Positions 9,902-39,429 are shown, counted from the first letter of the stretch. The stretch is 40,171 nucleotides of DNA from Anaerolineae bacterium (GCA_046760185.1 JBHIDP010000001.1:1-40171); one strand, 5' to 3'. Notes: generated from the letters alone by a model not told the origin. A program made the numbers and translations.

Positions 9902-9911
9902 AAGTGTTTGT

Positions 9912-9940
9912 TTGATTCAAGGTCAGGGTCTGGGTATAAT
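9912..9940 (+). promoter_or_regulatory. Sigma-70-type promoter giving a near-leaderless radical-SAM transcript
   Basis: TTGATT (9912-9917), 17-bp spacer, TATAAT (9935-9940). ATG 9950 lies only 9 nt after the -10, with no Shine-Dalgarno. Confidence 0.55.
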
Positions 9941-9949
9941 ACTTCTGCT

Positions 9950-11056: not shown

Positions 11057-11081
11057 CCTCGTCTGGCCTCTGAAATTATGG

Positions 11082-11110
11082 TTGACCTTCCCCTCCTTTG
11101 ATGTTATACT
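11082..11110 (+). promoter_or_regulatory. Sigma-70-type promoter upstream of the small-ORF pair
   Basis: TTGACC (11082-11087), 17-bp spacer, extended -10 TGtTATACT (11102-11110). Confidence 0.5.
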
Positions 11111-11322
11111 TGCATCAGCGCCAATGTGTTTGCGCCAAAGAGATACAACCCCGGCTGGCACAGGCGAGTAAAGCCAGGAGCGAATGGGACTTCCAGGCAG
11201 CGGCGCAAATCGTACAAGATGCCATAGAGATTTGTCAAAGGCTCGATGCGTCGGTGCCCTCTATTGCCTGTTTGAAGGAGCTTGTCACTCGCTACGTCGA
11301 AGCCTTGCAGATTGACTCTTAA
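11098..11322 (+). CDS. Hypothetical small protein, possibly the 5' half of a frameshifted gene
   Basis: 74-aa ORF with a helical-looking sequence (..WDFQAAAQIVQDAIEICQRLDASVPSIACLKELVTRYVEALQ). Its annotated start overlaps the predicted promoter, so the true start is unclear. Confidence 0.3.
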   Translation: MMLYLHQRQCVCAKEIQPRLAQASKARSEWDFQAAAQIVQDAIEICQRLDASVPSIACLKELVTRYVEALQIDS

Positions 11323-11473
11323 CCTGCGCTCTGGCGATGCAATAGCGCTCCGCCGGTTTGTTGAGGTGATGGAGAAGCTTGCTGAGAACCCTAACGCCCA
11401 AATTATCCTCACTCCAGATGACGTAACGAGGATTTTGAAAATGCTACAGAAAGCGCAGGAAAGGTCAGAGTGA
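11282..11473 (+). CDS. Hypothetical small protein, possibly the 3' half of a frameshifted gene
   Basis: 63-aa ORF overlapping the previous one in a different frame. The plausible protein part is LNLRSGDAIALRRFVEVMEKLAENPNAQIILTPDDVTRILKMLQKAQERSE. A strong terminator follows. Confidence 0.35.
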   Translation: MSLATSKPCRLTLNLRSGDAIALRRFVEVMEKLAENPNAQIILTPDDVTRILKMLQKAQERSE

Positions 11474-25831: not shown

Positions 25832-25843
25832 AAAGGCACTACT

Positions 25844-27541
25844 ATGCCCTTTCGCTTTCCTTTCCAACAACAATACCAGGAGATCGCCCGGGCACGCCAG
25901 ATAGCCGAGGTGTTGATCAAGAACGGGCTGGGTTTCCTGGTGGAGCAGTTTGAGCTGACTCGCTTCCTGCCCACCTGGCGAGGAAGGGTGGTCGGAGTCG
26001 GGCGGCTGGTGGACAGACTGTCCGTGCCCCAGCGCATCCGTCACACCATTGAGGAGCTGGGACCGACCTTCATCAAGCTAGGGCAACTGGTCAGCACCAG
26101 ACCCGACCTCCTCCCCATGGAGTACATTGATGAACTGAGCAAACTGCTGGATGCTGCTCCACCGATTCCTTTGACCGAGGTCAAGACCCTGATAGGGCAG
26201 GAATTGGGAGCCCCGGTTGAGGAACTGTTCGCCACTTTCCAGCCTGAGCCCATGGCCGCTGCCTCCATCGGTCAGGCCCATCGGGCCACGCTCCTTGATG
26301 GCCAGGAGGTAATCGTGAAAGTGCAACGTCCAGGGATCGAGGCGGTTGTGGAGGCGGACCTGGACATCATTATGCGGCAGGCGCGCTTCCTGGAGGGTCG
26401 CTCGGAACTGCTTCGGGACTACAACCTGGTTGAGATCGTGGAGGAGTTCAGCTACGCTCTGCGGAACGAGCTGGACTATGTCATTGAAGGGCGTAACGCC
26501 GATCGTTTCCGACGCAATTTTGCCGATGATCGGCGAGTGGTCATTCCCAAGGTCTACTGGTCTTTGAGCACTCATCGCGTCCTGACTCTTGAGGAGCTGT
26601 CCGGCATCAAGCTCAACAACTTGGCCCGCCTGAAGGAGGAGGGGTACGATTTCTCGACCCTGGCCGAGATCGGGACGACCATCTACCTCAAGCAAATCTT
26701 CGTTGATGGTTTCTTCCACGCCGACCCCCATCCAGCCAATATCTTCGTCCTGGACGGCGAGAGGATAGGGTTGGTTGATTTTGGCATGGTAGGATATCTG
26801 ACCAGTGGCATGAAGGGAGCTCTGGTTGATCTCTTCCTGGGCCTGATCAACGAGGATGTCGAGGGTACCACTCAAAGCCTGTTGCGCATGGGTAGGCCCG
26901 GCCGGGGGGTAGATGAGGAAGCTCTGAGAAGGGATGTCCACCGCTTTCTCGTTAGCTACTACGGTCTGGCCCTGGAACAGATAAAGGTCGGGGAAATCCT
27001 GGAGGAGGTCTTCAGACTGGCCTTTCGCCATCGCCTGCACATGCCTTCGGACCTTGCCCTGTTGGGTCGGAGCCTGATAGTCTTGGAGGGGGTGGCCCGT
27101 CGCCTGGACCCTGATTTCATGCTGGTGGAGGCAGCCAGGCCTTTCGCTGAACAGTTGATGTTAGAAAGGTTGTCTCCGCTCCGCGTTGGCCGCGACCTAT
27201 TGCGGTCAATATGGGAGTTCAATCAGTTGGCTCAGCGGCTGCCAACCCGCCTGGATTCCCTCTTCGATCAGATTCAGCAGGGGGAGGCCGGGGTTAACGT
27301 GGAGCTCACCCAGCTTGAGCAGTTTATGGCCAGGTTGGACGTGGTGGCCAACCGCCTGGCTTTCAGCCTGATTGTAGCGGCGGCCATCATCGGCTCTGCT
27401 CTGATCATTCAGGGAGGGACCAGCATCTGGTACCTCCCCTTCCTGGGGTGGAGCCTGCCTATAGCTCACATCAGTTTCTTCCTAGCCGGCCTACTTGGAG
27501 CCTGGCTCCTCTTCTCCATCCTGCGCTCGCGAGGGTTGTGA
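25844..27541 (+). CDS. ABC1/UbiB-family atypical kinase with C-terminal TM helices
   Basis: 565 aa. AAASIGQAHRATLLDGQEVIVKVQRPGI, HADPHPANIFV and DFGMVG motifs. Confidence 0.88.
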   Translation: MPFRFPFQQQYQEIARARQIAEVLIKNGLGFLVEQFELTRFLPTWRGRVVGVGRLVDRLSVPQRIRHTIEELGPTFIKLGQLVSTRPDLLPMEYIDELSKLLDAAPPIPLTEVKTLIGQELGAPVEELFATFQPEPMAAASIGQAHRATLLDGQEVIVKVQRPGIEAVVEADLDIIMRQARFLEGRSELLRDYNLVEIVEEFSYALRNELDYVIEGRNADRFRRNFADDRRVVIPKVYWSLSTHRVLTLEELSGIKLNNLARLKEEGYDFSTLAEIGTTIYLKQIFVDGFFHADPHPANIFVLDGERIGLVDFGMVGYLTSGMKGALVDLFLGLINEDVEGTTQSLLRMGRPGRGVDEEALRRDVHRFLVSYYGLALEQIKVGEILEEVFRLAFRHRLHMPSDLALLGRSLIVLEGVARRLDPDFMLVEAARPFAEQLMLERLSPLRVGRDLLRSIWEFNQLAQRLPTRLDSLFDQIQQGEAGVNVELTQLEQFMARLDVVANRLAFSLIVAAAIIGSALIIQGGTSIWYLPFLGWSLPIAHISFFLAGLLGAWLLFSILRSRGL

Positions 27542-29092
27542 AGGTTCTCTTATGGTCTGCTCAGCCGCCTGCACGAGATCACCTTGCACCACCAACCTCC
27601 GCACCGCCCCGATATAGGGATACATGAGGATGTCCCGTTCCAGGAAGGGGACCTTTTGGCGGATGAGGTCGTAGACCGGGCCGGTGCCTCTGCCCAAGGC
27701 TAGTGGTTGCCCGGCCTGCTCGCGGCGGAAGTCAATGGCCTGGGCGGCGGCCAACAGTTCGATGGCCAGGATGCACTCCACATTGTCCAGGATGTGACGG
27801 GCCTGACGGGCGGCGATAGGGCCCATGCTGACATGATCCTCCTGGTTACCGGAGGTAGGGATGGTGTCGGCACTGGCCGGGTGAACCAACACCTTGTTTT
27901 CGCTGGCCAGGGCGGCGGCTGTGTATTGAGCTAACATGAAGCCGGAATTGAGACCGCCCTGTTTGGTCAGGAAGGGGGGCAGGAGACCGTTGTTAAGGTC
28001 CTGGTCAATGAGACGGGCCAGCCGACGCTCTGAGATGTTACCCAGTTCTGTCAGGGCCAGGGCCAGGTAGTCCATGCTCAAAGCTATCGGTTCACCGTGA
28101 AAGTTGCCGCCGGAAAGGACAAGCGGCTGCCCATCTTCCCAGAAGATCAAGGGGTTGTCACTGGCCGAGTTCAGCTCGATCTCGATGACCGATCGGGCGT
28201 GGGTGATGGCACTGCGGACCGCGCCGTGAACCTGGGGGATGCAGCGTAAGGTGTAGGCATCATGGACCCGCTGAGGATCACGTCTCCGGGTGAACTGGCT
28301 CCCTTCAAGCAGACGGCGGAGGTAGGCGGCACACTCCACTTGATGGGGGTATGGGCGTAGAGCATGTAGGCGGGGATCGAAGGCTTCGGTCGTCCCTTGC
28401 AGGGCCTCAAGGCTCAAGCAGCCAGCGATATCGGCCACCCGGCTGGCGTTCTCGGCTGCCAGCAGGGTCAGAGTTCCGATGGCGGTCATGAAGGCCGTAC
28501 CGTTGGTCAACGCCACCCCCTCCTTGGCCTCTAAGACCAGGGATTTTAACCCCGCTCGGGCCATGGCCTCCCCCCCGGCCAGACGTTCCCCTCGGTAGAT
28601 AGCTTCCCCCTGGCCGGTAAGAACCAGGGACATGTGGGCCAGAGGGGCCAGGTCACCACTGGCCCCCACGGAGCCTTGAACCGGGATGACAGGATGCACC
28701 CTCTGGTTGATCATTCCTAACAGGGTCTCTATTGTTTCCATGCGCACGCCTGAGTACCCCTTGGCTAGGGTGTTGGCCCGGATAAGCATGGTCGCTCGCA
28801 CAGTGGCTTCGTCTGCGGGACGACCCACCCCTACGGCATGGCTCATGAGGATGTTACGTTGCAACTGGCGCACCTGGTCCAGGGGAATGGTGACATCCAT
28901 GAAACGGCCAAAGCCGGTGGTTATCCCATAAGCGATCTCCCCTCGGCTTACTAGATTCTCCACAGCCTGACGAGCCCTCTCAATCTTCTCTCTTGCTTCG
29001 GGGCTGATCTCAACTCTGGCCTCGCTGCCGGCTGCCACAGTTATCACATCCTCGACAGTCAAACTATTTCCATCTATGACTACCGTCTTCAT
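27491..29092 (-). CDS. hutH: Histidine ammonia-lyase (MIO enzyme)
   Basis: MIO-forming GSVGASGDLAPLAH. The selectivity position reads MSHAVGVG (Ser-His, as in HAL, rather than His-Leu or Phe-Leu). ATG 29092 has an AGGAGG Shine-Dalgarno. The 3' end overlaps the convergent ABC1 gene by 51 bp. Confidence 0.88.
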   Translation of the reverse strand: MKTVVIDGNSLTVEDVITVAAGSEARVEISPEAREKIERARQAVENLVSRGEIAYGITTGFGRFMDVTIPLDQVRQLQRNILMSHAVGVGRPADEATVRATMLIRANTLAKGYSGVRMETIETLLGMINQRVHPVIPVQGSVGASGDLAPLAHMSLVLTGQGEAIYRGERLAGGEAMARAGLKSLVLEAKEGVALTNGTAFMTAIGTLTLLAAENASRVADIAGCLSLEALQGTTEAFDPRLHALRPYPHQVECAAYLRRLLEGSQFTRRRDPQRVHDAYTLRCIPQVHGAVRSAITHARSVIEIELNSASDNPLIFWEDGQPLVLSGGNFHGEPIALSMDYLALALTELGNISERRLARLIDQDLNNGLLPPFLTKQGGLNSGFMLAQYTAAALASENKVLVHPASADTIPTSGNQEDHVSMGPIAARQARHILDNVECILAIELLAAAQAIDFRREQAGQPLALGRGTGPVYDLIRQKVPFLERDILMYPYIGAVRRLVVQGDLVQAAEQTIREPSQPSRAQDGEEEPGSK

Positions 29093-29109
29093 GTCACACC
29101 TCCTGGCCT

Positions 29110-29138
29110 CATTATACCATGTGCCCTCTGGCCTGAAA
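29110..29138 (-). promoter_or_regulatory. Candidate promoter for hutH
   Basis: On the minus strand: TTTTCA (29138-29133), 17-bp spacer, extended -10 TGgTATAAT. The 15-mer TGGTATAATGAGGCC is identical to the lpdA promoter. Confidence 0.45.
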
Positions 29139-29157
29139 AGGGGGAAGGGCACCATTT

Positions 29158-29186: not shown

Positions 29187-29224
29187 GACCATGGGTTGGT
29201 TGATGTTCACCAGGATGGAGATGG

Positions 29225-30337
29225 ATGCGAATCGGTATTGATGCCCGCTTGGTATACTATAGTCAGGCAGGGATCGGCCAGTATATCCTGCGCCTGACCG
29301 AAGGGTTGGCCCAGTTGGAACAGGAAGATGAGTTCATCCTCTTGCAAAGCCGCAAGGACAGGACGGTCATCGTTGACCAGCCCAACTTCAAGGTGAAATC
29401 CCTTTGGACTCCGAGCCATCACCGCCTGGAGCAATTGGCCCTCCCGGTGGAGATAGTGCCCTTGGGGCTGGATGTCCTGCACAGTCCCGACTTCATCCCT
29501 CCTTTCAGACGCAACTGTAAGTCGGTGATCACCATCCATGATCTGGCTTTCCTCCTCTACCCCCATTTCCTCACCAAAGAGAGCGCACGCTACTACAGCC
29601 AGATTGATAAGGCTGTCCGTCACACCGATCACATCATTGCCGTCTCTGAGAGTACCAAACAGGATACCATCCACCTCCTGGGGGTTTCGGAGAAGAAGAT
29701 CACGGTCATTCATGAGGCTGCCAATCCTATCTACCATTCTATTGACAACCCAAAGGCCCTGGAGAGGGTAAGAACCAAATATCAGATCAATCGGGATTTT
29801 ATCCTCTTCGTCAGCACCATCGAACCCCGCAAGAATCTGCCCACCCTGTTGCGTGCTTACCGTAAGCTTCTTGACGAGTACAAGATGGAGGTGCAACTGG
29901 TGGTTGCCGGCCGCAAGGGTTGGCTCTTCAGCGAGGTTTTCAAGCTGGTCAAAGAGCTGAGGTTGACGGATGGCGTGCTGTTCCTGGACCGGGTGCCGGT
30001 GGAGGATCTGCCCCTCCTCTACAACGCAGCCCAGGTTCTGGTTCATCCCTCCCGCTACGAAGGGTTTGGACTCCCTCCCCTGGAAGCCATGGCCTGTGGC
30101 ACCCCCACGGTTGTCTCCAACGTCTCGGCCCTGCCGGAGGTGGTGGGTGATGCCAGCCTTCTGGTGGAGTCGGAGGATGTGGAAGGGTTCACGGTGGCTA
30201 TCTGGCGGGTCCTGACCGACCAGGACCTGAGGGCCGAGCTGAGGGAAAAGGGTCTCAAGCGAGCCAAACTCTTCTCGTGGACCAAAGCGGCGCGCCAGAC
30301 TATGACCATCTACCACCGCCTGGGAAGCGAGTCATGA
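29225..30337 (+). CDS. Glycosyltransferase family 4 (GT-B, retaining)
   Basis: 370 aa. MRIGIDAR N-terminus and EX7E region PSRYEGFGLPPLEAMACGTPTVVS. Confidence 0.88.
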   Translation: MRIGIDARLVYYSQAGIGQYILRLTEGLAQLEQEDEFILLQSRKDRTVIVDQPNFKVKSLWTPSHHRLEQLALPVEIVPLGLDVLHSPDFIPPFRRNCKSVITIHDLAFLLYPHFLTKESARYYSQIDKAVRHTDHIIAVSESTKQDTIHLLGVSEKKITVIHEAANPIYHSIDNPKALERVRTKYQINRDFILFVSTIEPRKNLPTLLRAYRKLLDEYKMEVQLVVAGRKGWLFSEVFKLVKELRLTDGVLFLDRVPVEDLPLLYNAAQVLVHPSRYEGFGLPPLEAMACGTPTVVSNVSALPEVVGDASLLVESEDVEGFTVAIWRVLTDQDLRAELREKGLKRAKLFSWTKAARQTMTIYHRLGSES

Positions 30338-31590
30338 GAATCCTCTTTCTCACCCCCCAACTGCCCTATCCTCCCTATCAGGGGACCAGCCTCAGAAACT
30401 ATAACCTGATCAGGAGCCTGGCTGAACGGCATGAGGTGCACCTTCTCTCCTTCATCCAACCAGGGGACGATCTGGCCCGGGCCTCGCCTCTGAAGCAACT
30501 GTGTCGAACCTTCACCGCCGTACCAGCTCCCAGACGATCGCCTCTCCATCGTTTCCTATCCCTTTTGTTCTCCCCCCAACCAGACATGGCCCTGCGCCTT
30601 CCCTCCCAGGAATTTCACACCCGTTTAGGCCATACTCTTAGAGAACAGGCCTTGGACGTGGTCCAGGTGGAGGGGATCGAGATGGCTCAGTATGGCTTGT
30701 GGCTGATGGTAAATAGCCATAAGCCATCGGCTATAGGCCATCAGCCATCAGCTATCAGCCATCGGCCATTAGCTGTCTTTGATGACCACAATGCCGAGTA
30801 TGTCCTGCAACGGACAGCCTTTCAAAGCGATGTCCGCCAGCCCACCCGTTGGATGGCGGCCTTCTACTCCTTTGTCCAGTGGCACAAGTTGGCACGCTAC
30901 GAGCGGTGGGTCTGTCGGCACGCTGATCGGGTGGTGGCCGTCTCGGAAGCCGATGCCCGAGCTATTGAGCAGTTGGTGCCGGACCTGGAAGTAGCCGTTG
31001 TGCCGAACGGTGTAGACACGGAGCACTACCGGCCCCGATCCCAGTTGCCGACTTCCAAGTCCCTGGTCTTTACCGGGAAGATGGACTTTCGCCCCAACGT
31101 GGACGCTGTGCTGTGGTTCTGCCAGGAGATATTGCCCTTTATCATCGAGCAGATACCCGAGGTGCACTTCTACGTTGTGGGACAACAGCCTCACAGCCGT
31201 TTGAGCCATCTGGCCGATCAGCCGCATGTCACCCTCACCGGCCGTGTGGATGACGTTCGCCCCTATATTGCCGGGGCGGGGGTCTATGTGGTGCCGCTGC
31301 GTATGGGGAGTGGCACCCGTCTCAAGGTCCTGCAAGCTATGGCCATGGGCCAGGCTATCGTCTCCACCTCCCTGGGGTGTGAGGGGATCAGCCTGTGCCC
31401 CGGCCGGGAGGCTGTTCTGGCCGACACCCCTCCAGACTTTGCCCGTCAGGTGGTGGCCCTTTTGAGCGATGTCGGTCGCCGAAAGGAGTTGGGCCGGAAT
31501 GCACGTTTGCTGGCCGAGACCCACTATGACTGGCGGGTGATCGTGCCTGGGCTGGAGAAGGTCTATGAGGAAGCCAGGGCTGGAAGGTAA
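30334..31590 (+). CDS. Glycosyltransferase (GT4/GT1-like GT-B fold)
   Basis: ATG 30334 overlaps the upstream stop as ATGA. MRILFLTPQLPYPPYQGTSLRN N-terminus and a C-terminal VVPLRMGSGTRLKVLQAMAMGQAIVST motif. Confidence 0.85.
   Translation: MRILFLTPQLPYPPYQGTSLRNYNLIRSLAERHEVHLLSFIQPGDDLARASPLKQLCRTFTAVPAPRRSPLHRFLSLLFSPQPDMALRLPSQEFHTRLGHTLREQALDVVQVEGIEMAQYGLWLMVNSHKPSAIGHQPSAISHRPLAVFDDHNAEYVLQRTAFQSDVRQPTRWMAAFYSFVQWHKLARYERWVCRHADRVVAVSEADARAIEQLVPDLEVAVVPNGVDTEHYRPRSQLPTSKSLVFTGKMDFRPNVDAVLWFCQEILPFIIEQIPEVHFYVVGQQPHSRLSHLADQPHVTLTGRVDDVRPYIAGAGVYVVPLRMGSGTRLKVLQAMAMGQAIVSTSLGCEGISLCPGREAVLADTPPDFARQVVALLSDVGRRKELGRNARLLAETHYDWRVIVPGLEKVYEEARAGR
30714..30776 (+). repeat. Nine tandem imperfect heptanucleotide repeats (consensus CAGCCAT) inside the GT coding sequence
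   Basis: tagccat aagccat cggctat aggccat cagccat cagctat cagccat cggccat tagctgt. Translated, this is a 7-aa periodicity: SHKPSAI GHQPSAI SHRPLAV. Confidence 0.85.
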
Positions 31591-31650: not shown

Positions 31651-33015
31651 ATGAAGCGAGGATGGTTGGAGATGACCACAGGAGCCAGGGTGAGGAGAGT
31701 GAGACCTGATAGAACCCTGCGCCAATGGGTTCGCTTGTTTCTCCTTCACCTCTTCGCGGCCCTGACCGCTCCTCTGGTTCCAAGTTCCACCAACGCGCGG
31801 TCACGTGGCCTCTGGCTTCCCTGGCCTGACCGCCAGGACAGGCAGCCAGGGGAAGGTTCTCTCTTACGTGGGGGGATTCAAGCCTCCCACGTGACCGCGA
31901 CGTTGACTTCTGCGGTCCTCCATTCCATCCTTCTCATCCGTCCAGATCACCTGGGTGACCTTCTTTTCACCACCCCGGCGCTGAAGGTTTTGCGAGAAAC
32001 CTTTCCAGAAGCGCACATCACCTATCTGGTTGGTCCCTGGGGTGTGCCGGTTATGGCCAACAACCCCGACGTTGACCAAATCGCGGTCTGTCCCTTTCCC
32101 GGGTTCAGCAGAGGGGCGAAGAAGAGCTTCCTTGAACCCTACCTCCTCCTCTGGAAGCAGGCGAAGATTTTGAAAGAGAGGAGGTTTGATCTGGCCATCC
32201 TCCTCCGCTTTGACCATTGGTGGGGGGCCCTGCTGGCTTATCTCGCTGGCATCCCGGCCAGGGTCGGGTATGACGTTGCCGAAGTACGGCCTTTTTTGAC
32301 CAGGGCTGTGCCCTACACGTACGGCCACCATGAGGTGGAACAAAATCTTCGCCTGGTAGGGGCAATCGGTGGAGACAGGATAATTTATGCCGGTCAGCGG
32401 TTGAGCCGGGATGATCAGCTCCCATTTTCCCGATACAGGTTAGAATTCAACCCCTCAGCCGAGGACAGGGAGTTTGCTGCTGCCTATCTGGCTGAGCGAG
32501 GTATCGTGAGTGGGGACCCTCTCATTTGTATCCATCCGGGAGCTGGTGCTCCGGTCAAGTTATGGCGGAACGAGGCCTGGGCCCAGGTGGCTGACACTTT
32601 AGCTCAAAGGCGGGGGGTCAAAATCATCATCACCGGCGCCAGGGGAGAAGCGGAACTGGCTGGAGCGATAGCTGCTCAGATGAAGCTCCCCCCCATTGTG
32701 GCGGCCGGTGACACCAGTCTGGGCCAGTTAGCGGCTATCATGGCTCGTTCCCGTCTGGTGCTCGGCCCTGACTGTGGTCCGTTGCACCTGGCCGTGGCTA
32801 TGGGTGTGCCCACCGTGCACCTCTATGGGCCGGTGGACCATCAGGCCTTTGGCCCTTGGGGTGATCCATCGCGGCACCGTGTTCTCCTTTCCCGGTTGGA
32901 TTGCATCCCCTGCAATCGTTTGGACTACACTGCTGAGGAACTGGATGAACACCCCTGTGTGCGGTTGATCACGGTTGACCAGGTGCTGGCCGTGGCTCAG
33001 GAGCTGCTGAATTGA
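31651..33015 (+). CDS. Glycosyltransferase family 9 (heptosyltransferase-like)
   Basis: ILLIRPDHLGDLLFTTPALKVLRETFPEAHITYLVG and GPDCGPLHLAVAMGVPTVHLYGP are GT9 hallmarks. The first ~80 codons are Arg-rich and look non-coding. In-frame GTG 31891 is a plausible real start. Confidence 0.8.
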   Translation: MKRGWLEMTTGARVRRVRPDRTLRQWVRLFLLHLFAALTAPLVPSSTNARSRGLWLPWPDRQDRQPGEGSLLRGGIQASHVTATLTSAVLHSILLIRPDHLGDLLFTTPALKVLRETFPEAHITYLVGPWGVPVMANNPDVDQIAVCPFPGFSRGAKKSFLEPYLLLWKQAKILKERRFDLAILLRFDHWWGALLAYLAGIPARVGYDVAEVRPFLTRAVPYTYGHHEVEQNLRLVGAIGGDRIIYAGQRLSRDDQLPFSRYRLEFNPSAEDREFAAAYLAERGIVSGDPLICIHPGAGAPVKLWRNEAWAQVADTLAQRRGVKIIITGARGEAELAGAIAAQMKLPPIVAAGDTSLGQLAAIMARSRLVLGPDCGPLHLAVAMGVPTVHLYGPVDHQAFGPWGDPSRHRVLLSRLDCIPCNRLDYTAEELDEHPCVRLITVDQVLAVAQELLN

Positions 33016-33024
33016 GAAGCGCGT

Positions 33025-34875
33025 GTGCGTATTGACGCCAACCAATCAACGCAGGCGTTTGGCTTTTCCTTTAGGATGGGGTACAATAATAATGGGGAGG
33101 TGACAACTGTAGCCTCGGATCGTTTCGTTAACCCCTACATAGTGGGAAACCCTCTCAAAACCCCTGAGATGTTCTACGGGCGGGAGGATATCTTCCACCA
33201 CATCCAAGAGCACCTGGCTGGGCGCTACCAGGACAACCTGCTGGTGCTCTATGGCCAGAAGCGCACAGGCAAGACCTCGGTCCTTTACCAGATCATCAAT
33301 CGCCAGTTGCTGGGAGACCGATACGTCCCGGTGTACATCAACCTCCAAGGGCTGACCCAGCCGGGGATGAAGGGCCTGCTCCACGACTTGGCCACTGAGA
33401 TCTCCCACTCCGTTGACCTTCCTGACCCGGCCCGAGAGCAATTCAGCCCGGACCCCGGCGGCTTCTTCAAGCGAGATTTCTTGGACGGGGTCATCGAGGC
33501 CATCGGTGGTCGCTGTCTGCTGCTGATGGTGGACGAATACGAGGTGTTAGAGGACAAGGTGAAGGCCGGGAAGCTAGAAGAAGAGTTCTTCCCCTACCTC
33601 CGCTACCTGATGCAGGATCGGGAGAACCTGGGTTTCATCTTTGCCGGCTCCCGCAAGCTGGAGGAAATGGACCCTCGCCTCTGGTCCATCTTCCGTAACA
33701 CTCTCTACAGGAAGATCAGCTTCCTAGAGAAAGAGGAGACACGGCGGCTGATCACCGAACCGGTGGACGGGGTGATGACCTACGATTATGCAGCAGTGGA
33801 AGCGATCTACCAGGCCACCTTCGGCCACCCCTATTTCACCCAGCTCTACTGCCACCACCTGGTGAGCCGCTATTGGACGAAGGCAGGTCCGATCACTGTC
33901 GCAGACGTGGAAGCAGCTTCGTTGCTGGCCGAGACAATCGAGGCGTCTGAGCCTCAACTTCACGTGATGTGGGACGAGACCACGGATGAGGAGAAGGTCG
34001 TGCTGGCCGCCATGTCCATCGCCACCGCCAGGCAGCGGACGGCCCCTCCCTCTACCCTGGCCAACGTCCTGGCTCGCTACCGGGCGCGTATCGGCCAGCG
34101 GGACTTGAACCGGGCTCTGGGCGGCCTGGTCACTCGCGATGTTCTGTTAATCGAGGAAGGCTTCAACTATCGCTTTGCTGTAGATTTGTTCCAGCGATGG
34201 GTGGGACAAACGCAACGTCTGGAAAGTCTGCTGGAAGAGTTGGGGTTGGCGGCAGCTTATGAAGAGCAGGGGAAGCAGCAGGCGGCGTTGAGGGGCTATG
34301 AACAAGTATTGGCTGTGGACCCCAGTTGCGTCGAGGCCTTCAATGCCCTCGGCCATCTTCATTACCAACAAGAGGAACTGAACCGGGCATTGAAGGCCTA
34401 CCGGCAAGCACTGAAACTGGAACCGGACAATGCCGTCGCTGCCAGCGCTGCAATGGAACTGCATTACCAACTGGGCCTGCGATACTTCAAGGCCCGGCAA
34501 TGGCAGCAAGCCCTGGATCATTTCCGACAACTGGATGGTGCGCAAGCTGCCGCCTTCCCGGACGTAGCGTCTAAGATAGCCGAGGCTGAGCGGCGGTTGC
34601 GCCGACCTCCGGGTGAAGTACCGAGCGCACGACCGCGTTGGGCGGCTCTGACGATAGTAGCTGTTGGCTTCGTAGCGATGCTGATAGCCGTTCTCTTGCT
34701 GTCTGGATCAGAAAGCCCTACACCTACACCTGCCGTAACTCTCCCCCTGCCGGAAAAGCTCTTGGTGACCGCCTCAGTGAAGTACCGCATCAGCACTGAG
34801 GACACGGAGACGCAGAGGGTCTATGTGCGCGTGACCGATGAAGAGGAGCAGGCAGTGGAAGGTGCTCAGGTGTAG
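33025..34875 (+). CDS. STAND-like / Arch_ATPase-like P-loop NTPase fused to TPR repeats and one TM helix, ended by an in-frame TAG
   Basis: FYGREDIF helix, Walker A GQKRTGKTS (nt 33253) and Walker B LLLMVDEYE. TPR-like repeats span about aa 400-500. TM helix WAALTIVAVGFVAMLIAVLLL (nt 34639-34701), then a Pro/Thr linker. Start uncertain (33025, 33076 or 33100). Confidence 0.75.
   Translation: MRIDANQSTQAFGFSFRMGYNNNGEVTTVASDRFVNPYIVGNPLKTPEMFYGREDIFHHIQEHLAGRYQDNLLVLYGQKRTGKTSVLYQIINRQLLGDRYVPVYINLQGLTQPGMKGLLHDLATEISHSVDLPDPAREQFSPDPGGFFKRDFLDGVIEAIGGRCLLLMVDEYEVLEDKVKAGKLEEEFFPYLRYLMQDRENLGFIFAGSRKLEEMDPRLWSIFRNTLYRKISFLEKEETRRLITEPVDGVMTYDYAAVEAIYQATFGHPYFTQLYCHHLVSRYWTKAGPITVADVEAASLLAETIEASEPQLHVMWDETTDEEKVVLAAMSIATARQRTAPPSTLANVLARYRARIGQRDLNRALGGLVTRDVLLIEEGFNYRFAVDLFQRWVGQTQRLESLLEELGLAAAYEEQGKQQAALRGYEQVLAVDPSCVEAFNALGHLHYQQEELNRALKAYRQALKLEPDNAVAASAAMELHYQLGLRYFKARQWQQALDHFRQLDGAQAAAFPDVASKIAEAERRLRRPPGEVPSARPRWAALTIVAVGFVAMLIAVLLLSGSESPTPTPAVTLPLPEKLLVTASVKYRISTEDTETQRVYVRVTDEEEQAVEGAQV
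33059..33087 (+). promoter_or_regulatory. Candidate internal promoter for the NTPase pair
   Basis: TTGGCT (33059-33064), 17-bp spacer, TACAAT (33082-33087). In-frame GTG 33100 follows. This would make the annotated starts at 33025 and 33076 too long. Confidence 0.3.
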
Positions 34876-35061
34876 GTGGTGATTCATTTCTTTGGCGGGG
34901 ATCGCTCCCTTGGGCCAGTTTCCACCGACAGGAACGGCACAGCAATCTTTGACTTCCCAGTGAGCAGTTACACACGCGGTTATATTGTCATAATTGATGT
35001 CACAGCCGTGTACAATGGGTTGGCAGGGACAGCTCAAACCGCCTTCTTGGAGTGGTACTGA
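34876..35061 (+). pseudogene. In-frame continuation of the preceding ORF (rest of the beta-sandwich module), cut off by TAG 34873-34875
   Basis: Same reading frame as 33025-34875. These 61 codons are homologous to the C-terminus of the 15128-16189 protein. The paralogue has TGG (Trp, 16001-16003) where this copy has TAG. Confidence 0.7.
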
Positions 35062-35067
35062 ACCAGG

Positions 35068-36204
35068 ATGACCACTTGTTCGCAGTTGGGAAGCAACACG
35101 CTACGGCTTGTGGTGTTGCCCCAAGGGGCCTTTCGTTTCTACCCTCAATCACGGGTCGAGATCATGGGCGATCAGTGGAAGGCCGTAGCTTTTCTGGGAG
35201 GTGGGAGCAATCGTTTTGACCTCCTCCTCATCCAGGCAGATCCGGTAGCAGATTGGGTGCTGACCGAGGCACAGATAACAGGAACAGGCTTGACAGCTCT
35301 CCCTGACCCGGCCCACTTCCACGGCCGGCGGCGGGAGATCGAGCTGATCGCCAGCCGGCTGCAAGGTGTGGGCTTCGGCAGCAGTTCCGTGGTCGGCGAA
35401 CGGCGCATCGGTAAGACTTCACTCCTTCGCCACTTCCTGGTGCCGGAGGTGCAGCAGCGGTACGGCTTCGGCCCTGAGTTCACCTTTGTCTATCTGAGCT
35501 TTGGTGGGCTGAGCACCATCACCCCCGCCCAATTCTGGCAATGGGTACTGGAAGAATTGCTGCCGAAAGTCAAAGACGAAGCGTTGCGGTCTCAGATCAC
35601 GGCCTTTCAAGCGCAAGATGGGCCGGACTTCCTGGCCTTGCGCCGCCTTTTCGACGCCATCACCCGCAAGGGGCTTAAGGTCGTGTTGGTCTTCGACGAA
35701 TTTGAGGACGTTGTCCGCAACCCCAACTTCGACGCCGATTTCTACGGTGGCCTGCGCGATCTGGCCAGCCGCTACAACTTGACTCTGCTCACCTCCAGCC
35801 GCCGCCAGTTGATCGAGTACTCCCACTCTGAGGAGAGCAGCAGCTCTCCCTTCTTCAACATCTTCGCCAACATCGTGCTGAAGCCCTTCAGCCGGGGGGA
35901 GGCGCTGGAACTGATCGCAGAATACCTCGAAGAGACAGATGTGGTATTCAGCGACGAGGACAGAGAATACAACCGGGCCAGGTTTCCCGATTGGTTTGCC
36001 ACAGAGGTGGATCTCTTAGCCAGTTTCTCATCTGAACTGAGGAAGGATCGCGAGCCAAGCATGTACGGCGATGAGGTGTCAGGGATTACCCCTGACGAAC
36101 TCTACGGAGAAAGCCAAGCCGTCGAAGCCCTGGCGAAAGCAGAGCGAACCTTTGCAACCTGTGAGAGGTTGATCAACGAAATACGGTCTGAGGAAAGGGC
36201 CTGA
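35068..36204 (+). CDS. STAND-like / Arch_ATPase-like P-loop NTPase, paralogous core, with unrecognised N- and C-terminal regions
   Basis: 378 aa. FHGRRREIELI helix, Walker A GERRIGKTS (nt 35395), Walker B VVLVFDEFE, and NIFANIVLKPFSRGEALELI equivalent to the RKISFLEKEETRRLI segment of the upstream protein. Confidence 0.75.
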   Translation: MTTCSQLGSNTLRLVVLPQGAFRFYPQSRVEIMGDQWKAVAFLGGGSNRFDLLLIQADPVADWVLTEAQITGTGLTALPDPAHFHGRRREIELIASRLQGVGFGSSSVVGERRIGKTSLLRHFLVPEVQQRYGFGPEFTFVYLSFGGLSTITPAQFWQWVLEELLPKVKDEALRSQITAFQAQDGPDFLALRRLFDAITRKGLKVVLVFDEFEDVVRNPNFDADFYGGLRDLASRYNLTLLTSSRRQLIEYSHSEESSSSPFFNIFANIVLKPFSRGEALELIAEYLEETDVVFSDEDREYNRARFPDWFATEVDLLASFSSELRKDREPSMYGDEVSGITPDELYGESQAVEALAKAERTFATCERLINEIRSEERA

Positions 36205-36258
36205 TCAGAGGGGATTGAAGAGAAGGCGACAGCGGAAAAAACAGCGACCCTGGAGGAA

Positions 36259-37089
36259 ATGAAGAGCCTGCGCCATGACCATCTGGTGGGAGAGAAGCTG
36301 ATCATGACCCGATCCCAAACACATACCCTGACCCCCGACCAGATCGAGGAAGACCGACATTGGTGGTTTGCCAGCCGCACGCGAGCCTTGCTGGGAATGC
36401 TTGATCGCTGTGTTCCCGACGACGACCTGCGTATCCTGGATGTCGGCTGTGGGGCGGGCAACATGATCCATCACCTGAGCCGCTACGGAGAGGTCAAAGG
36501 GATCGAGATGGACCCTCGGCCCCTGGCCGTGGCGCGCCAGCGGGGGTACGATGCCCAACTGGCCGATGCCGCCAAGGAGATTCCTTTCGAGGAGGGCACA
36601 TTCGATCTGGTGGCTGTCCTGGATGTGATCGAGCACAACGAGGATGACCTGGGTATCTTGCGGGAGTGTCATCGGGTGCTGAAGCCGGGAAGGTTGGTGG
36701 TCATTACCGTGCCGGCCTTCCAGTGGCTGTGGAGCTACAACGACGTCATAAATGCCCACCTGCGTCGCTATACGGCCGGGGGGTTGGCAGCCAAGTTGAA
36801 GCAGGTTGGCTTTGGGGTCAGACGGATGACCTACAACAACTTCTTCGTCTTCCCCATGGCTATCGGTCTGATCCTTTCTCGCCGAGGGACCGGGCGCGAG
36901 CCTCAATTGGCTTCCCACCACCTTCAGCAGGATGAATATCAGGTGGAGATGGAGCCGGTTCCCCCGTTGGTAAACGCCGTCTTGAGCGGGGTTGGCTGGA
37001 TGGAGGCTAACCTTTTGAAGTGGGTGGATTTGCCCGTCGGTACCTCGATCATCTGCATTGGGGAGAAAAGGGCCATGGGACTTTTGTAG
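36259..37089 (+). CDS. Class I SAM-dependent methyltransferase
   Basis: SAM motif ILDVGCGAGNMIHHL, acidic loop GIEMD, and LKPGRLVVITVP. ATG 36304 (MTRSQ...) has better Shine-Dalgarno spacing than 36259. Confidence 0.85.
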   Translation: MKSLRHDHLVGEKLIMTRSQTHTLTPDQIEEDRHWWFASRTRALLGMLDRCVPDDDLRILDVGCGAGNMIHHLSRYGEVKGIEMDPRPLAVARQRGYDAQLADAAKEIPFEEGTFDLVAVLDVIEHNEDDLGILRECHRVLKPGRLVVITVPAFQWLWSYNDVINAHLRRYTAGGLAAKLKQVGFGVRRMTYNNFFVFPMAIGLILSRRGTGREPQLASHHLQQDEYQVEMEPVPPLVNAVLSGVGWMEANLLKWVDLPVGTSIICIGEKRAMGLL

Positions 37090-37150
37090 TGGAATCTGGA
37101 GTGAGTGAGGGTGATGGACCCCTCATGTGCGAAGGAAAGGTGGTGAGGAG

Positions 37151-37393
37151 ATGCCAGAGGAGAAAGTAGAACTGACCTGGGACGAGCACTTTGCCAAAGG
37201 CATGGCCGGTCTATGGAAAGAAATGATGGCGGCCGGTGAGCAATTTTTGCCGCCTGAGGAGTTTCGGCGGCATTGCCGGGCCGCTGGCAAAGAGGCGCTT
37301 TTGGCAGTGCGCAGCCTCTTCGACACGGCCATTGAGCGGTTAGAAGAGGAGAAGCCCGCAAAGAAGAAAGCGACGAAGATCAAGGTAGAGTAG
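37151..37393 (+). CDS. Small hypothetical protein (charged, helical)
   Basis: 80 aa from ATG 37151 (the track ORF starts at 37127). AGGTGG Shine-Dalgarno, and a hairpin terminator follows. Confidence 0.45.
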   Translation: MPEEKVELTWDEHFAKGMAGLWKEMMAAGEQFLPPEEFRRHCRAAGKEALLAVRSLFDTAIERLEEEKPAKKKATKIKVE

Positions 37394-37420
37394 GGGGAGA
37401 ATAAGCTCACCTACAACAGT

Positions 37421-37470
37421 GCCCCGCTCCAGGCGTTGACTCAGCTCAACGGCAGGGAGTGGGGCATTTT
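37421..37470. terminator. Hairpin shared by convergent genes
   Basis: Stem gccccgctcc (37421-37430) with ggagtggggc (37456-37465), one G-U pair. Inner stem gttga/tcaac. Followed by atttt. Confidence 0.6.
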
Positions 37471-38636
37471 CAATCGGAGAGCCAGAGGTTGAGGTTCCTG
37501 ACAAAGTCGGCCAGGGTGTCCTTGCCGCGCACGCGGATGCGCTGTAACTCGAAGGGTCTGAGGGACGATTGGCGGGTGCCTTGCCTCACCGTGACCGCAC
37601 CCCAATAGTGCGCTGAGTGCAGGACCCTCATCACGCGCTGGTCGTACTTGCCCGATGGATAGCTGAAGAACCGCACTGGCTGGCCGGTGCGAGCCTCTAA
37701 GGCCTCCTTGGCTCCTAGAACCTGCCAGACGATGTAGCTGGTAGGCCTCCCACGCAGGTCTGGGTGGGTGTGACCATGGGCCTCCATCTCCATCCCCTCC
37801 GCGCTCATGACCTCGATCTCCTCCCAGGAGAGGTATTCCTGCTGACCTATAAACCCGGTAACGATAAAGAAAGTGCCCACGAAGCCATACCGTTTGAGGA
37901 GGGGATAGGCGTTGGTGTATTGGTCCTTGTAGCCGTCGTCGAAGGTGAGGATGATCGGTTTGGAAGGCAGAGGAGCGCCCAAATTCAAGTGAGCTATCAG
38001 ATCTCGCAGGAGGATAGGGTGGTAGCCAGCGCGTACCAGGTAACGGAGTTGGGCCTCGAAGGCAACAGGGGTGACTGACAGGTCACGGCGGATGGCACCA
38101 GCCCTTGGTGGAGGGGCGGCGATATGGTGGTACATGAGGATCGGCACCCGAACCTCTCGCACAACCCCATCGGGGGTCGGTTGCAGTACAGGGGTGGCTG
38201 TCGGTCGTGGGGTGTAGGTGGAGGTAGGGCTGGGGGAAGGGGTTGGTGTCGGTAAAGGGGTCGAGGTGGGGGTAGATGTTGGCCTGGAAGGCACTGATTG
38301 GGTGACGGCCGGGGTGGAGGTCGGCCTGGGGGAAGGGGTGAAAAGAGGGGTTGGAGTCCAGGTCGTGGTTGGAGTGAAAGTCGGCTTTGTCAGGCCAGGG
38401 GTTGCCTGGGTTGCAGCCTGTCTGTCTGGGAGGGGAGCGTGGGGGTCCAGGCTAGGTGCAAGGGATAAAGGTCCCGCTGGCCGGGAATGTTTGAGGTCGG
38501 GCTCTCGGGCTGAGACAACCTCGGGTGTAGCGCTTTCTCCTGAGGCAAATATGAGGCCACCGGTGACGACTACTACCAGGGATAACAGTGACACCCGCAG
38601 TGCAATGTTGGATCTGTCAAGGATAGGGACTCTCAA
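37470..38636 (-). CDS. Polysaccharide deacetylase (CE4 / NodB homology domain) with a TM anchor and Pro/Thr linker
   Basis: ILTFDDGYKDQY (Asp-Asp metal/catalytic motif) and MEAHGHTHPDL (His-His). N-terminal TM helix LLSLVVVVTGGLIF. TTG start overlaps the NUDIX stop as TTGA. Confidence 0.85.
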   Translation of the reverse strand: MRVPILDRSNIALRVSLLSLVVVVTGGLIFASGESATPEVVSAREPDLKHSRPAGPLSLAPSLDPHAPLPDRQAATQATPGLTKPTFTPTTTWTPTPLFTPSPRPTSTPAVTQSVPSRPTSTPTSTPLPTPTPSPSPTSTYTPRPTATPVLQPTPDGVVREVRVPILMYHHIAAPPPRAGAIRRDLSVTPVAFEAQLRYLVRAGYHPILLRDLIAHLNLGAPLPSKPIILTFDDGYKDQYTNAYPLLKRYGFVGTFFIVTGFIGQQEYLSWEEIEVMSAEGMEMEAHGHTHPDLRGRPTSYIVWQVLGAKEALEARTGQPVRFFSYPSGKYDQRVMRVLHSAHYWGAVTVRQGTRQSSLRPFELQRIRVRGKDTLADFVRNLNLWLSD

Positions 38637-39199
38637 GCCTCTCTCCTAGAGCGAAGTCGAAGGTTGTTGGCTTGTTTTTGGCTCCAAATGGAGAGCAAGC
38701 CGACTATACTCTTGCCATCACGTATCTCCCCGACTTTGATCATCGAGACCGCCTGGGCCAGGGGCACCTTAACTACCCTGATCACTTCATCCTCTTCGGC
38801 CTCCGCTTTCCCTGGCCTCAGGTCTGTCACCAGGTAGACCTGTATCTTCTCGGTGCAGTATCCGGGACTGGGATAGAAATCAACGAGGGGGCGCAAGGTT
38901 CCACCCTCATATCCGGTCTCCTCCCGCAGCTCGCGCTGCGCACAGGCTTCTGCCTCCTCACCCGGCTCTCTGGTGCCGGCCGGGATCTCCCACAACTCCC
39001 CTTCTACCGCTTTACGGAACTGACGCACCAGCACTACGTTTTCCTCGTCGTCCAAGGCCACCATACCCACTGCGCCCGGGTGTTCCACGATCTCGCGCTC
39101 TATCAGACGGCCCTTTGACAGGCGAACGGTGTCAATCCGCAAATTCAGCAACCGGCCTCGAAAGGGGTATTCCGTTGAGACAGTCTCCTCCATAACCAA
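38633..39199 (-). CDS. NUDIX hydrolase (ADP-ribose pyrophosphatase-like)
   Basis: Nudix box GTREPGEEAEACAQRELREETGY. ATG 39193 is an alternative to TTG 39199. Confidence 0.85.
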   Translation of the reverse strand: MVMEETVSTEYPFRGRLLNLRIDTVRLSKGRLIEREIVEHPGAVGMVALDDEENVVLVRQFRKAVEGELWEIPAGTREPGEEAEACAQRELREETGYEGGTLRPLVDFYPSPGYCTEKIQVYLVTDLRPGKAEAEEDEVIRVVKVPLAQAVSMIKVGEIRDGKSIVGLLSIWSQKQANNLRLRSRREA

Positions 39200-39223
39200 T
39201 CAGTCTCTCATAGGGCTTCTGAG

Positions 39224-39429
39224 CAAATGAAAATGCTGCGGTCGAAACAAGTTGGAGTCGAGGCTTCAGCCGGTTTTATCCGCCTGAAGGCTCCACTCCT
39301 CCACAGATTTTAGCCAGACGCAAATGAAAATGCTGCGGTCGAAACAAGTTGGAGTCGAGGCTTCAGCCGGTTTTATCCGCCTGAAGGCTCCACTCCTCCA
39401 CAGATTTTAGCCAGACACAAATGAAAATG
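39224..39429 (+). repeat. Tandem direct repeat: 2.1 copies of a 97-bp hairpin-containing unit
   Basis: Units start at 39224, 39321 and 39418 (the last is partial). Copies 1 and 2 are identical except at the final base. Each holds a 16-nt-arm hairpin, ggagtcgaggcttcag...ctgaaggctccactcc, with 14 of 16 positions paired. Confidence 0.9.

Follow-up and report, generated by a model that had tools for sequence, protein, structure and literature searches.

NTPases of the STAND/NLR type are usually regarded as cytoplasmic sensors. Kaur, Iyer, Burroughs and Aravind defined the nSTAND2 family on the basis of a mobile operon whose two genes both encode STAND NTPases (eLife 2021, PMC8195603, Fig. 6C). 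In that operon one partner combines eroded NTP-binding motifs with a winged helix-turn-helix (wHTH), tetratricopeptide repeats (TPRs) and an effector, either HEPN or GT4; most of the examples listed come from Proteobacteria, and fusions of nSTAND2 to HEPN RNase domains were also described (PMC8195603). Fusions of STAND NTPases to lectin folds, known from conflict systems in multicellular bacteria, have been read mainly as intracellular sensors, often with diversification by diversity-generating retroelements (DGRs) (PMC8195603; PMC10907252). Here we analyse a stretch of 40,171 nucleotides (nt) from an Anaerolineae bacterium (GCA_046760185.1, JBHIDP010000001.1:1-40171), hereafter the window, in which two neighbouring open reading frames on the same strand, ORF1 and ORF2, carry related NTPase cores. 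It is probable, in our view, that the pair is a degraded copy of a mobile two-gene module of Anaerolineae, which was inserted between the genes for a GT9 glycosyltransferase and a methyltransferase and has since decayed. An initial annotation of this DNA had proposed an uncharacterised two-gene system. The pair is indeed conserved and has no match among the systems of PADLOC v2, but a close operon has been published (Kaur et al. 2021) and the copy in the window is not intact.

A conserved gene pair in Anaerolineae

We define the A-B module as a gene A, encoding an ATPase_2-like NTPase that usually has a transmembrane (TM) helix and an ectodomain, beside a same-strand gene B encoding an nSTAND2 protein of ~434 residues. 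A scan for gene B using one genome per species identified 325 genomes with a relative, nearly all of them Anaerolineae, and the pair statistics given here were taken from the best 80 loci, which are almost all from Chloroflexota. An ORF1-like gene is adjacent to gene B, upstream and on the same strand, in 41 of these loci, adjacent downstream in 6 and within 4 kb in 7 more; it is absent from 26, of which 15 have too little flanking sequence. Counting the 48 loci with enough flank, the ORF1-like gene is adjacent in 30, near (within 4 kb) in 7 and missing in 11. The reverse look-up found an nSTAND2 gene adjacent to, or within 1.3 kb of, gene A in five out of five homologs that carry different ectodomains.

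The surroundings of the pair vary between genomes. In the locus of P0002, the closest intact homolog of ORF2, gene B lies directly downstream of a gene A whose 874-residue product is 48-50% identical to ORF1 and has its NTPase and TPR parts, and the pair is flanked by genes for phosphoribosyl pyrophosphate synthetase and SecA (locus L002). Elsewhere the pair is found beside a DNA methylase (L006), beside thrS-infC in the cultured Pelolinea submarina, where the genes overlap by 4 nt, and in VWA/BatA and tRNA synthetase/TatD contexts. No third gene conserved with the pair emerged from all-against-all clustering of the ORFs in the 80 loci, which gave shadow ORFs only and no cluster in more than 11 loci. 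The adjacency of A and B is not chance: they form a conserved two-gene unit that is mobile independently of the glycosyltransferase (GT) genes that surround it in the window. A check of exactly this kind had been suggested in the initial annotation, and the counts above, in contexts independent of the GT genes, bear the co-occurrence out.

When the gene A products of L002 and L006 are compared with ORF1, identity is 50-55%; between the gene B products of these loci and the ORF2 core it is 58-65%. The window pair fits the A-B module in order, strand and family, but its gene B is truncated and chimeric and its gene A ectodomain is interrupted. The Walker A signature GxxxxGKT/S and the DE of Walker B are invariant in the gene A and gene B alignments and present in both ORF1 and ORF2, and from these motifs both NTPases are predicted to be of active types.

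Gene A encodes a membrane-spanning STAND-type NTPase

A STAND module in the sense of Leipe et al. 2004 consists of a P-loop domain, a helical lid with a GxP-type motif and a winged helix, usually followed by repeats. All of these parts, the nucleotide-binding domain, the lid (GHPYF), the winged helix and the TPRs, are present in a confident AlphaFold2 model of ORF1 (mean predicted local distance difference test, pLDDT, 80.7), in which the TPR solenoid is followed by a long hydrophobic helix. The best matches of the model in the PDB are 2qen and 2fna, then ORC/Cdc6, MalT, NRC3 and CED-4. In Pfam, TPR_1/TPR_2 match with E~2e-14 in three stretches, TPR_11 likewise, and AAA_22 at 34.9 bits lies above its cut-off; ATPase_2 (PF01637) reaches 29.5 bits against a cut-off of 33.2, and nSTAND2 and NACHT are absent from the matches listed (25 of 29 families). 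Residues G60, K66, T67, S68, D153 and E154 are invariant in 27 gene A homologs, numbered as in P0121, the NCBI version of ORF1. That entry, named 'tetratricopeptide repeat protein', has 599 residues and begins at the ATG at 33076, which is likely to be the start of the protein.

The F-x-G-R-x-x-E and Walker motifs, the TM helix, the TPRs and the Pro/Thr linker are all located where the initial annotation had placed them (Table 1). Its assignment of an Arch_ATPase/STAND layout to both proteins holds for ORF1, given the model and its structural matches, but not for ORF2, which has the P-loop domain only. The profile searches it had recommended do return STAND-type NTPases: ORF2 is an nSTAND2 protein (PF20702) and ORF1 has TPRs and AAA_22, with ATPase_2 falling below its cut-off.

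The TM helix of ORF1 has a hydropathy of 2.93 over 19 residues, with six Lys or Arg in the 20 residues before it and one after, in agreement with the topology first proposed, which has the NTPase and TPRs inside and the last module outside. This arrangement had been considered unusual, yet it proves to be the rule for the family. A TM helix follows the NTPase module in 47 of 55 ORF1-like partners, and 46 of these 47 have exactly one; the 15 residues flanking the helix contain on average 3.9 Lys and Arg before it versus 1.5 after; and most database homologs of ORF1 share the topology. The exported part of the TM-bearing partners has a median length of 477 residues, and ORF1 stands out by its tiny ectodomain. 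Gene A ectodomains include DUF1080/3-keto-disaccharide-hydrolase/ConA-like (13), FGE-sulfatase (6), Sortilin/BNR (5), PD40 (4), C-type lectin (4), Laminin_G_3 (3) and WD40 (2) domains.

The ectodomain of ORF1 is interrupted

An in-frame TAG at 34873-34875 cuts ORF1, and the same frame runs for 61 more codons to a TGA at 35059-35061. The ectodomain is 57 residues long up to the TAG and 118 if read through, and the codon usage of the exported module in frame 1 is coding-like. Weak Ig-like Pfam alignments (Invasin_D3 and Big_1 with E~1e-3; CarboxypepD_reg), all below cut-off, extend across the TAG. The Ig-like assignment of the module, for which these sub-threshold matches are the sole basis, is weak; the beta-sandwich domain first proposed finds some agreement here, but the stop codon means that it is not intact. 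A word-indexed search with the exported module and the first 77 residues of ORF2 returned no homolog at E<=10, a weak null from a search that also missed the proteins of the window itself, and blastx against the proteins and loci retrieved in this analysis returned self matches only.

A perfect 12-nt inverted repeat, CACCTACACCTG / CAGGTGTAGGTG, is present at 34721-34732 and 34867-34878, and its second arm includes the premature TAG. By a rough estimate ~0.4 such repeats would be expected by chance in the region. A quasi-palindrome-templated mutation could have created the TAG. We also observed that ORF1, the 61-codon ORF and ORF2 share one reading frame, with only the TAG (34873) and the TGA (35059) between them. 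The interval 34702-35298 may once have been a single ectodomain-coding region of ~200 residues, the 3' end of which was later joined to gene B.

Gene B is the putative output arm and is chimeric in the window

Intact gene B encodes ~434 residues comprising a P-loop domain, a lid, a winged helix and a four-helix tail. It looks like the output arm of the module: variants bear a TIR domain at the N- or the C-terminus, a Ser/Thr kinase (Pkinase) or a guanylate/adenylate cyclase, and further variants bear GerE or XRE helix-turn-helix (HTH) domains. Its top structural matches are 2qen and 2fna, with NRC3, Roq1 and Avs4 among the matches of gene A or gene B. Several loci without gene A carry such extended forms of gene B. 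In L168 (6365-7783), L170 (6196-8133), L171 (2301-10610) and one more locus, relatives of gene B are fused to a GerE HTH, an XRE HTH or a Pkinase domain, the last with or without a cyclase. At one of these loci the neighbours of gene A include a caspase (Peptidase_C14) gene, another nSTAND2 gene and a gene for an outer-membrane channel.

ORF2 retains only part of the intact architecture. It matches nSTAND2 with E=1.7e-20 and 73.9 bits (cut-off 24), limited to profile positions 15-200 of 279. AAA_16, AAA_22 and nSTAND1 also match, ATPase_2 reaches 30.6 bits (cut-off 33.2) and NACHT (PF05729) 20.2 bits, too low for assignment to that family at a cut-off of 26.7. The part that matches the family is residues 78-298, equivalent to residues 12-232 of homologs with a typical length of 428-434 residues, and the 65% identity to P0002 is confined to this P-loop span. 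In the model of P0002 (pLDDT 84.5) the part lost from ORF2 comprises the lid, the winged helix and the four-helix tail. Using tblastn we found no trace of homolog residues 233-434 in any frame of the window, and the N-terminal NPFxYGxP motif of the family is not encoded in any other frame either, so frameshifts do not explain the truncation. Between the ORF1 and ORF2 cores there is 25% identity (E=1e-5, pairwise BLASTP), and between ORF1 and intact nSTAND2 proteins 24-25% over ~360 residues. These values point to distant paralogs from two long-diverged families; the paralogy first noted thus stands as distant homology, but not as a recent tandem duplication.

Both ends of ORF2 had been described as unassignable. 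This remains the case for the first 77 residues, which have no homolog and no Pfam match and whose codons (35068-35298) are weakly coding-like in frame 1, but the last 80 residues correspond to the C-terminal half of a HEPN protein. An exhaustive, profile-free search of a representative library with the last 84 residues gave 155 protein matches, the bulk of them 60-175 residues long and aligned by their C-terminal part (~69-140 in proteins of ~140 residues), together with a few long multi-repeat proteins. The matches tested are Pfam HEPN (PF05168) proteins of ~142 residues. The tail of ORF2 itself scores 15 bits against this model (cut-off 22), over positions 70-116 of 117, and is not a full domain. 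The HEPN sequence enters at 'NRARFPDWF' and continues to the end of ORF2, with the first ~68 HEPN residues missing, and the homology switches from nSTAND2 to HEPN between nt 35962 and 35975. ORF2 is, judged by these alignments, a three-part chimera of 77 residues without homolog, nSTAND2 residues 12-232 and a HEPN C-terminal half. The junction is most simply read as the product of a deletion by which a shortened gene B became fused to the 3' half of a HEPN gene already resident there, and ORF2 is unlikely to be a working STAND switch.

We considered whether the pair might be functional as it is, with ORF1 ending naturally at the TAG with an extracellular stub and ORF2 representing a neofunctionalised minimal NTPase with an effector tail derived from HEPN. 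The intact Walker A and B motifs of both proteins would fit this idea, as would the coding-like codon usage of every segment, the fact that both ORF2 junctions are in frame and the identity of ORF2, save one synonymous base, in a second assembly; nSTAND2-HEPN RNase fusions are also on record (Kaur et al. 2021, PMC8195603). However, ORF2 lacks the lid and winged helix that are kept by 19 of 19 aligned homologs and needed by STAND switches, and some 68 residues are missing from the HEPN N-terminus in its tail, the conserved R..SQE and K.H.V stretches among them. The tail also resembles free-standing HEPN proteins of ~142 residues (48-53% identity) rather than fusions, no other protein of the same architecture was found, P0001 being the sole full-length match, and the Ig-like alignments of ORF1 span the TAG. 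We therefore regard a functional pair as unlikely.

The pair is inserted in a glycan locus

The genes flanking the pair are GT4, GT4 and GT9 upstream and a methyltransferase downstream, and it had been proposed that the pair interrupts this block. We compared the window with 80 metagenome loci that contain a GT9 ortholog. The GT4a-GT4b-GT9 block is kept wherever the contigs reach upstream. In 17 loci the methyltransferase comes directly after GT9, 45-95 nt later and overlapping it in one, with a deacetylase further on; in one more locus it follows after ~3.5 kb, and in the closest loci it is the deacetylase that comes directly after GT9. A copy of gene A or B after GT9 was seen in none of the 80, and only one locus (L094) gave weak ORF2 matches, which are to its HEPN gene. 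In relatives the methyltransferase comes immediately after GT9, which identifies the pair as an insertion and upholds the proposed interruption.

What occupies the slot after GT9 varies between loci: nothing in most relatives, DUF5919 and MNT-HEPN genes in L094, and the STAND pair with the HEPN remnant in the window. The slot behaves like a small hotspot for accessory genes. L094, which is 73% identical to the window in GT4a, 60% in GT9 and 68% in the deacetylase, has an intact pair of MNT nucleotidyltransferase and HEPN genes between GT9 and a small downstream ORF. Within 9065-11367 of this locus lie a DUF5919 membrane protein, MNT and HEPN, and the last ~30 HEPN codons appear frameshifted relative to the ORF2 tail and other HEPN proteins.

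We found no convincing insertion scars around the pair. An 18-nt direct repeat (16/18) occurs at 32954-32971, near the 3' end of GT9, and at 36158-36175, near the 3' end of ORF2, 3204 nt apart. Both copies encode C(V/E)RLI within coding sequence, for which reason we rejected the repeat as a target-site duplication; ~0.1 such pairs would be expected by chance on a rough estimate, and it may be chance. The promoter that had been proposed for the pair at 33059-33087 did not hold up. The site has 9/12 matches, two such sites were found where shuffled sequence gives 0.7 +/- 0.9, which does not exceed chance expectation, and the annotated ATG precedes its -10 box. No terminator was found between the pair and its neighbours.

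It is conceivable that the pair belongs to the glycan locus, as a membrane sensor and partner that regulate the envelope glycan made by the GT4-GT4-GT9-methyltransferase-deacetylase genes. The pair is located within the block on the same strand, 9 nt past the GT9 stop, and no promoter or terminator could be convincingly assigned to it. Lectin-like folds, potential glycan binders, are common among gene A ectodomains, and some gene B variants have HTH output domains. However, none of the 80 orthologous GT9 loci has a copy of gene A or B and 17 have the methyltransferase directly after GT9, while the pair itself occurs in unrelated contexts in the loci examined, with no gene conserved alongside it. 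A role in the glycan locus is thus distinctly unlikely.

Since the window is a contig of a metagenome-assembled genome (MAG) and both anomalies lie within 1.1 kb, the stop and the chimeric ORF2 might also be artefacts of assembly or binning, with an intact pair in the real genome. However, a Logan contig that was assembled separately (L001, run SRR29324587) shows the TAG as well; it spans 34817-39274 of the window with one mismatch in 4458 bases and contains both ORF2 junctions, with ORF2 identical save the one synonymous base mentioned above. Misassembly junctions are also not expected to be in frame twice, and the HEPN half runs smoothly into the conserved methyltransferase flank. An artefact is very unlikely on this evidence. 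Decoding of the ORF1 TAG by read-through or as pyrrolysine, which would yield the full ectodomain, has in its favour that the domain resumes in frame directly past the stop, but is hardly credible because TAG is the normal stop of 11 other ORFs in the window, several of them where Pfam domains are full-length, and neither a tRNA gene nor a recoding element turned up in the window; pyrrolysine machinery is not known in Anaerolineae.

Table 1. Coordinates of the gene pair, its parts and the bordering genes, counted from the first nucleotide of the window
Feature	Position	Strand	Basis or remark
GT9 glycosyltransferase, left border of insertion	31651..33015	+	Pfam Glyco_transf_9
ORF1 (gene A), membrane-spanning ATPase_2/STAND-type NTPase	33025..34875	+	616 aa from GTG; stops at in-frame TAG
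ORF1 P-loop nucleotide-binding domain	33172..33720	+	motifs; model strands and helices, P0121 residues 33-215
ORF1 FYGRE motif	33172	+	
ORF1 Walker A GQKRTGKTS	33253-33279	+	
ORF1 Walker B LLLMVDEYE	33517-33543	+	
ORF1 helical lid and winged-helix domain	33730..34239	+	model H219-316, H325-379, hairpin E357-367
ORF1 lid motif GHPYF	33823-33837	+	
ORF1 TPR repeats	34252..34602	+	Pfam, ORF1 residues ~405-503; model helical repeats 393-509
ORF1 single TM helix WAALTIVAVGFVAMLIAVLLL	34639-34701	+	model helix 522-542; predicted N-terminus inside, C-terminus outside
ORF1 exported module, Pro/Thr linker and putative Ig-like beta-sandwich	34702..35061	+	split by TAG 34873-34875
SPTPTP in ORF1 Pro/Thr linker	34714-34731	+	
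61-codon ORF, second half of exported module	34876..35061	+	same frame as ORF1
ORF2	35068..36204	+	378 aa
ORF2 first 77 codons, replacing nSTAND2 N-terminal NPFxYGxP motif	35068..35298	+	alignment to homologs
ORF2 nSTAND2 P-loop domain (gene B remnant)	35299..35961	+	equals residues 12-232 of ~434-residue homologs
ORF2 FHGRRRE motif	35317	+	
ORF2 Walker A GERRIGKTS	35395-35421	+	
ORF2 Walker B VVLVFDEFE	35680-35706	+	
ORF2 tail, C-terminal half of small HEPN gene, in-frame fusion	35965..36204	+	
S-adenosylmethionine methyltransferase, right border of insertion	36259..37089	+	Pfam Methyltransf_11

Neighbouring features of the window

The two GT4 genes (29225-31590) overlap by 61 nt (30277..30337) if the longest ORFs are taken, and the start of GT4b is probably further downstream; a full-length antisense ORF (29207..30316) lies opposite the first GT4. 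Three genes precede the glycan block within 23840-29155: one for a 663-residue protein with PEGA, Big_7 and DUF5107 domains, one for an ABC1-type atypical kinase and a minus-strand gene for an aromatic amino acid ammonia-lyase (Lyase_aromatic, 657 bits). A small 88-residue ORF at 37127-37393, ending EEKPAKKKATKIKVE, has a conserved counterpart behind the variable slot of L094 (11131-11367) and carries the Pfam annotation AF_1253 in the Logan contig. No tRNA genes or Rfam families were found in the window.

A model for the module and its decay

We return to the reading of the window pair as a decayed copy of the A-B module. An intact module would have entered a conserved glycan locus between its GT9 and methyltransferase genes. 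The nonsense TAG would then have cut the small, putatively Ig-like ectodomain of gene A, and a deletion would have removed the lid, winged helix and tail of gene B and joined the rest to the 3' half of a neighbouring HEPN toxin-antitoxin gene. The window copy is probably non-functional.

In the intact module, gene A would be a single-pass membrane protein with a P-loop domain, lid, winged helix and, in most cases, TPRs in the cytoplasm and a variable, presumably ligand-binding domain outside. We propose that the gene A ectodomain binds something outside the cell, that binding would release NTP-dependent oligomerisation of the cytoplasmic module of gene A, and that gene A would then recruit or co-assemble with gene B, which would deliver the output. 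Indirect support comes from the tight and conserved adjacency of the genes, the topology, the range of sensor-like ectodomains and the range of output domains. The direction of signalling in this scheme is, like the loss of function in the window, something we infer. It is possible, though we advance this as a tentative suggestion, that the intact A-B module represents an undescribed class of bacterial transmembrane signalling or immune receptor, made up of an outward-facing, single-pass STAND protein with a variable domain of lectin-like or beta-propeller type and a dedicated cytoplasmic STAND protein with interchangeable outputs (TIR, cyclase, kinase or HTH).

Several observations weigh against this interpretation of the window and of the module. 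The four gene A proteins most closely related to ORF1 are soluble, with a protein kinase or a LexA-like S24 peptidase at their C-terminal end, so the reading as a TM receptor does not extend to the whole clade; these ends also indicate that C-terminal modules are swapped even among close relatives. In the 11 of 48 informative loci with no detectable gene A, some gene B proteins bear their own TIR or cyclase, so gene B can probably act alone. The idea that the A and B proteins are in contact has the conserved adjacency of their genes as its sole basis. As for the decay, ORF1 and ORF2 both stay open, their Walker motifs are intact and all segments are coding-like, and some residual or new function of either could have been retained. 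The Logan assembly may share reads with the MAG, which makes it not fully independent for the stop and the junctions. Finally, what comes after the HEPN gene in L094 is the small ORF rather than the methyltransferase, which makes any ancestral gene order proposed for the slot tentative.

If the proposal is correct, the A-B module would be an outward-looking counterpart of sensor/helper NLR pairs, present in hundreds of Chloroflexota species including Pelolinea submarina, a cultured organism with an intact pair. The family places the presumed sensor outside the membrane, and its genes nearly always come with one for a second STAND protein, variants of which bear classic outputs. Should A and B cooperate, this would suggest a new route by which outside signals (glycans, neighbouring cells, phage or predator surfaces) might enter NTP-gated assemblies in filamentous bacteria. 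For annotation, we recommend that ORF2 be recorded as a chimeric remnant and not as a new protein, and the copy as an insertion that is decaying within a glycan locus, in a slot of variable content.

Comparison with known systems

Searches of PADLOC-DB v2 returned no system that matches the pair, and there is no NCBIfam equivalog. In the window, ORF2 matches the candidate system PDC-S27 with E=3.4e-4, and the matches of ORF1 are due to its TPRs or weaker still. For intact gene B the PDC-S27 match reaches E~5e-8 (27-30 bits, partial model), and gene A matches through its TPR or kinase domains only. The open-access literature contains STAND-lectin fusions and STAND targets diversified by DGRs, both from multicellular bacteria. 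Beyond the papers of the Aravind group and one on DGRs, we found no description there of a TM-STAND protein paired with nSTAND2.

HEPN-MNT toxin-antitoxin modules (PF05168 and NTP_transf_2) resemble the locus in that the last 80 residues of ORF2 align to the C-terminal half of HEPN, but only this half domain is present, fused to an NTPase remnant and with no MNT partner in the region. The archaeal ATPase_2 proteins PABY2304 (2qen) and SSO1545 (2fna) and ORC/Cdc6 are the best structural matches and share the P-loop domain, lid and winged helix; in contrast to the A-B module they are soluble single genes without a TM helix or ectodomain, and the ATPase_2 scores obtained here fall below the cut-off.

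With plant sensor/helper NLRs (NRC helpers), Avs and bNACHT the module shares, as a working analogy that makes no claim of membership, the principle that one STAND protein senses and a second executes, and TIR outputs on gene B variants are a further likeness to NLR-type systems. Those systems sense in the cytoplasm, whereas the sensor here would face outside, and the NACHT score is below its cut-off. The STAND-lectin-fold fusions (FGS/FGE-sulfatase, NPCBM; PMC8195603; PMC10907252) also join STAND NTPases to variable domains of the FGE-sulfatase or C-type-lectin type, likewise with an enrichment in filamentous bacteria. Here, however, the TM helix is predicted to put the lectin-like domain outside, an nSTAND2 partner is present, and no DGR was seen in the loci examined.

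The closest comparison is with the operon of Kaur et al. In both cases two adjacent same-strand genes each encode a STAND NTPase with a winged helix, one partner being bare and the other bearing TPRs and a variable C-terminal module, and PF20702, the Pfam model derived from that operon, matches ORF2 at 73.9 bits. The genes are adjacent and mobile here as well (47 of 80 loci adjacent, five of five reverse look-ups, varied contexts). There are also differences. Neither partner is eroded, as both families keep invariant Walker A and B motifs. The TPR-bearing partner is of the active type, comes first and ends in a kinase, in Peptidase_S24 or in a TM helix with an ectodomain. What ORF2 carries of HEPN is half a domain, of the free-standing type that partners MNT. 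The organisms are Chloroflexota, and nSTAND2 is not among the Pfam matches listed for ORF1. Taken together, the system is a variant of the described two-STAND theme and not a new category.

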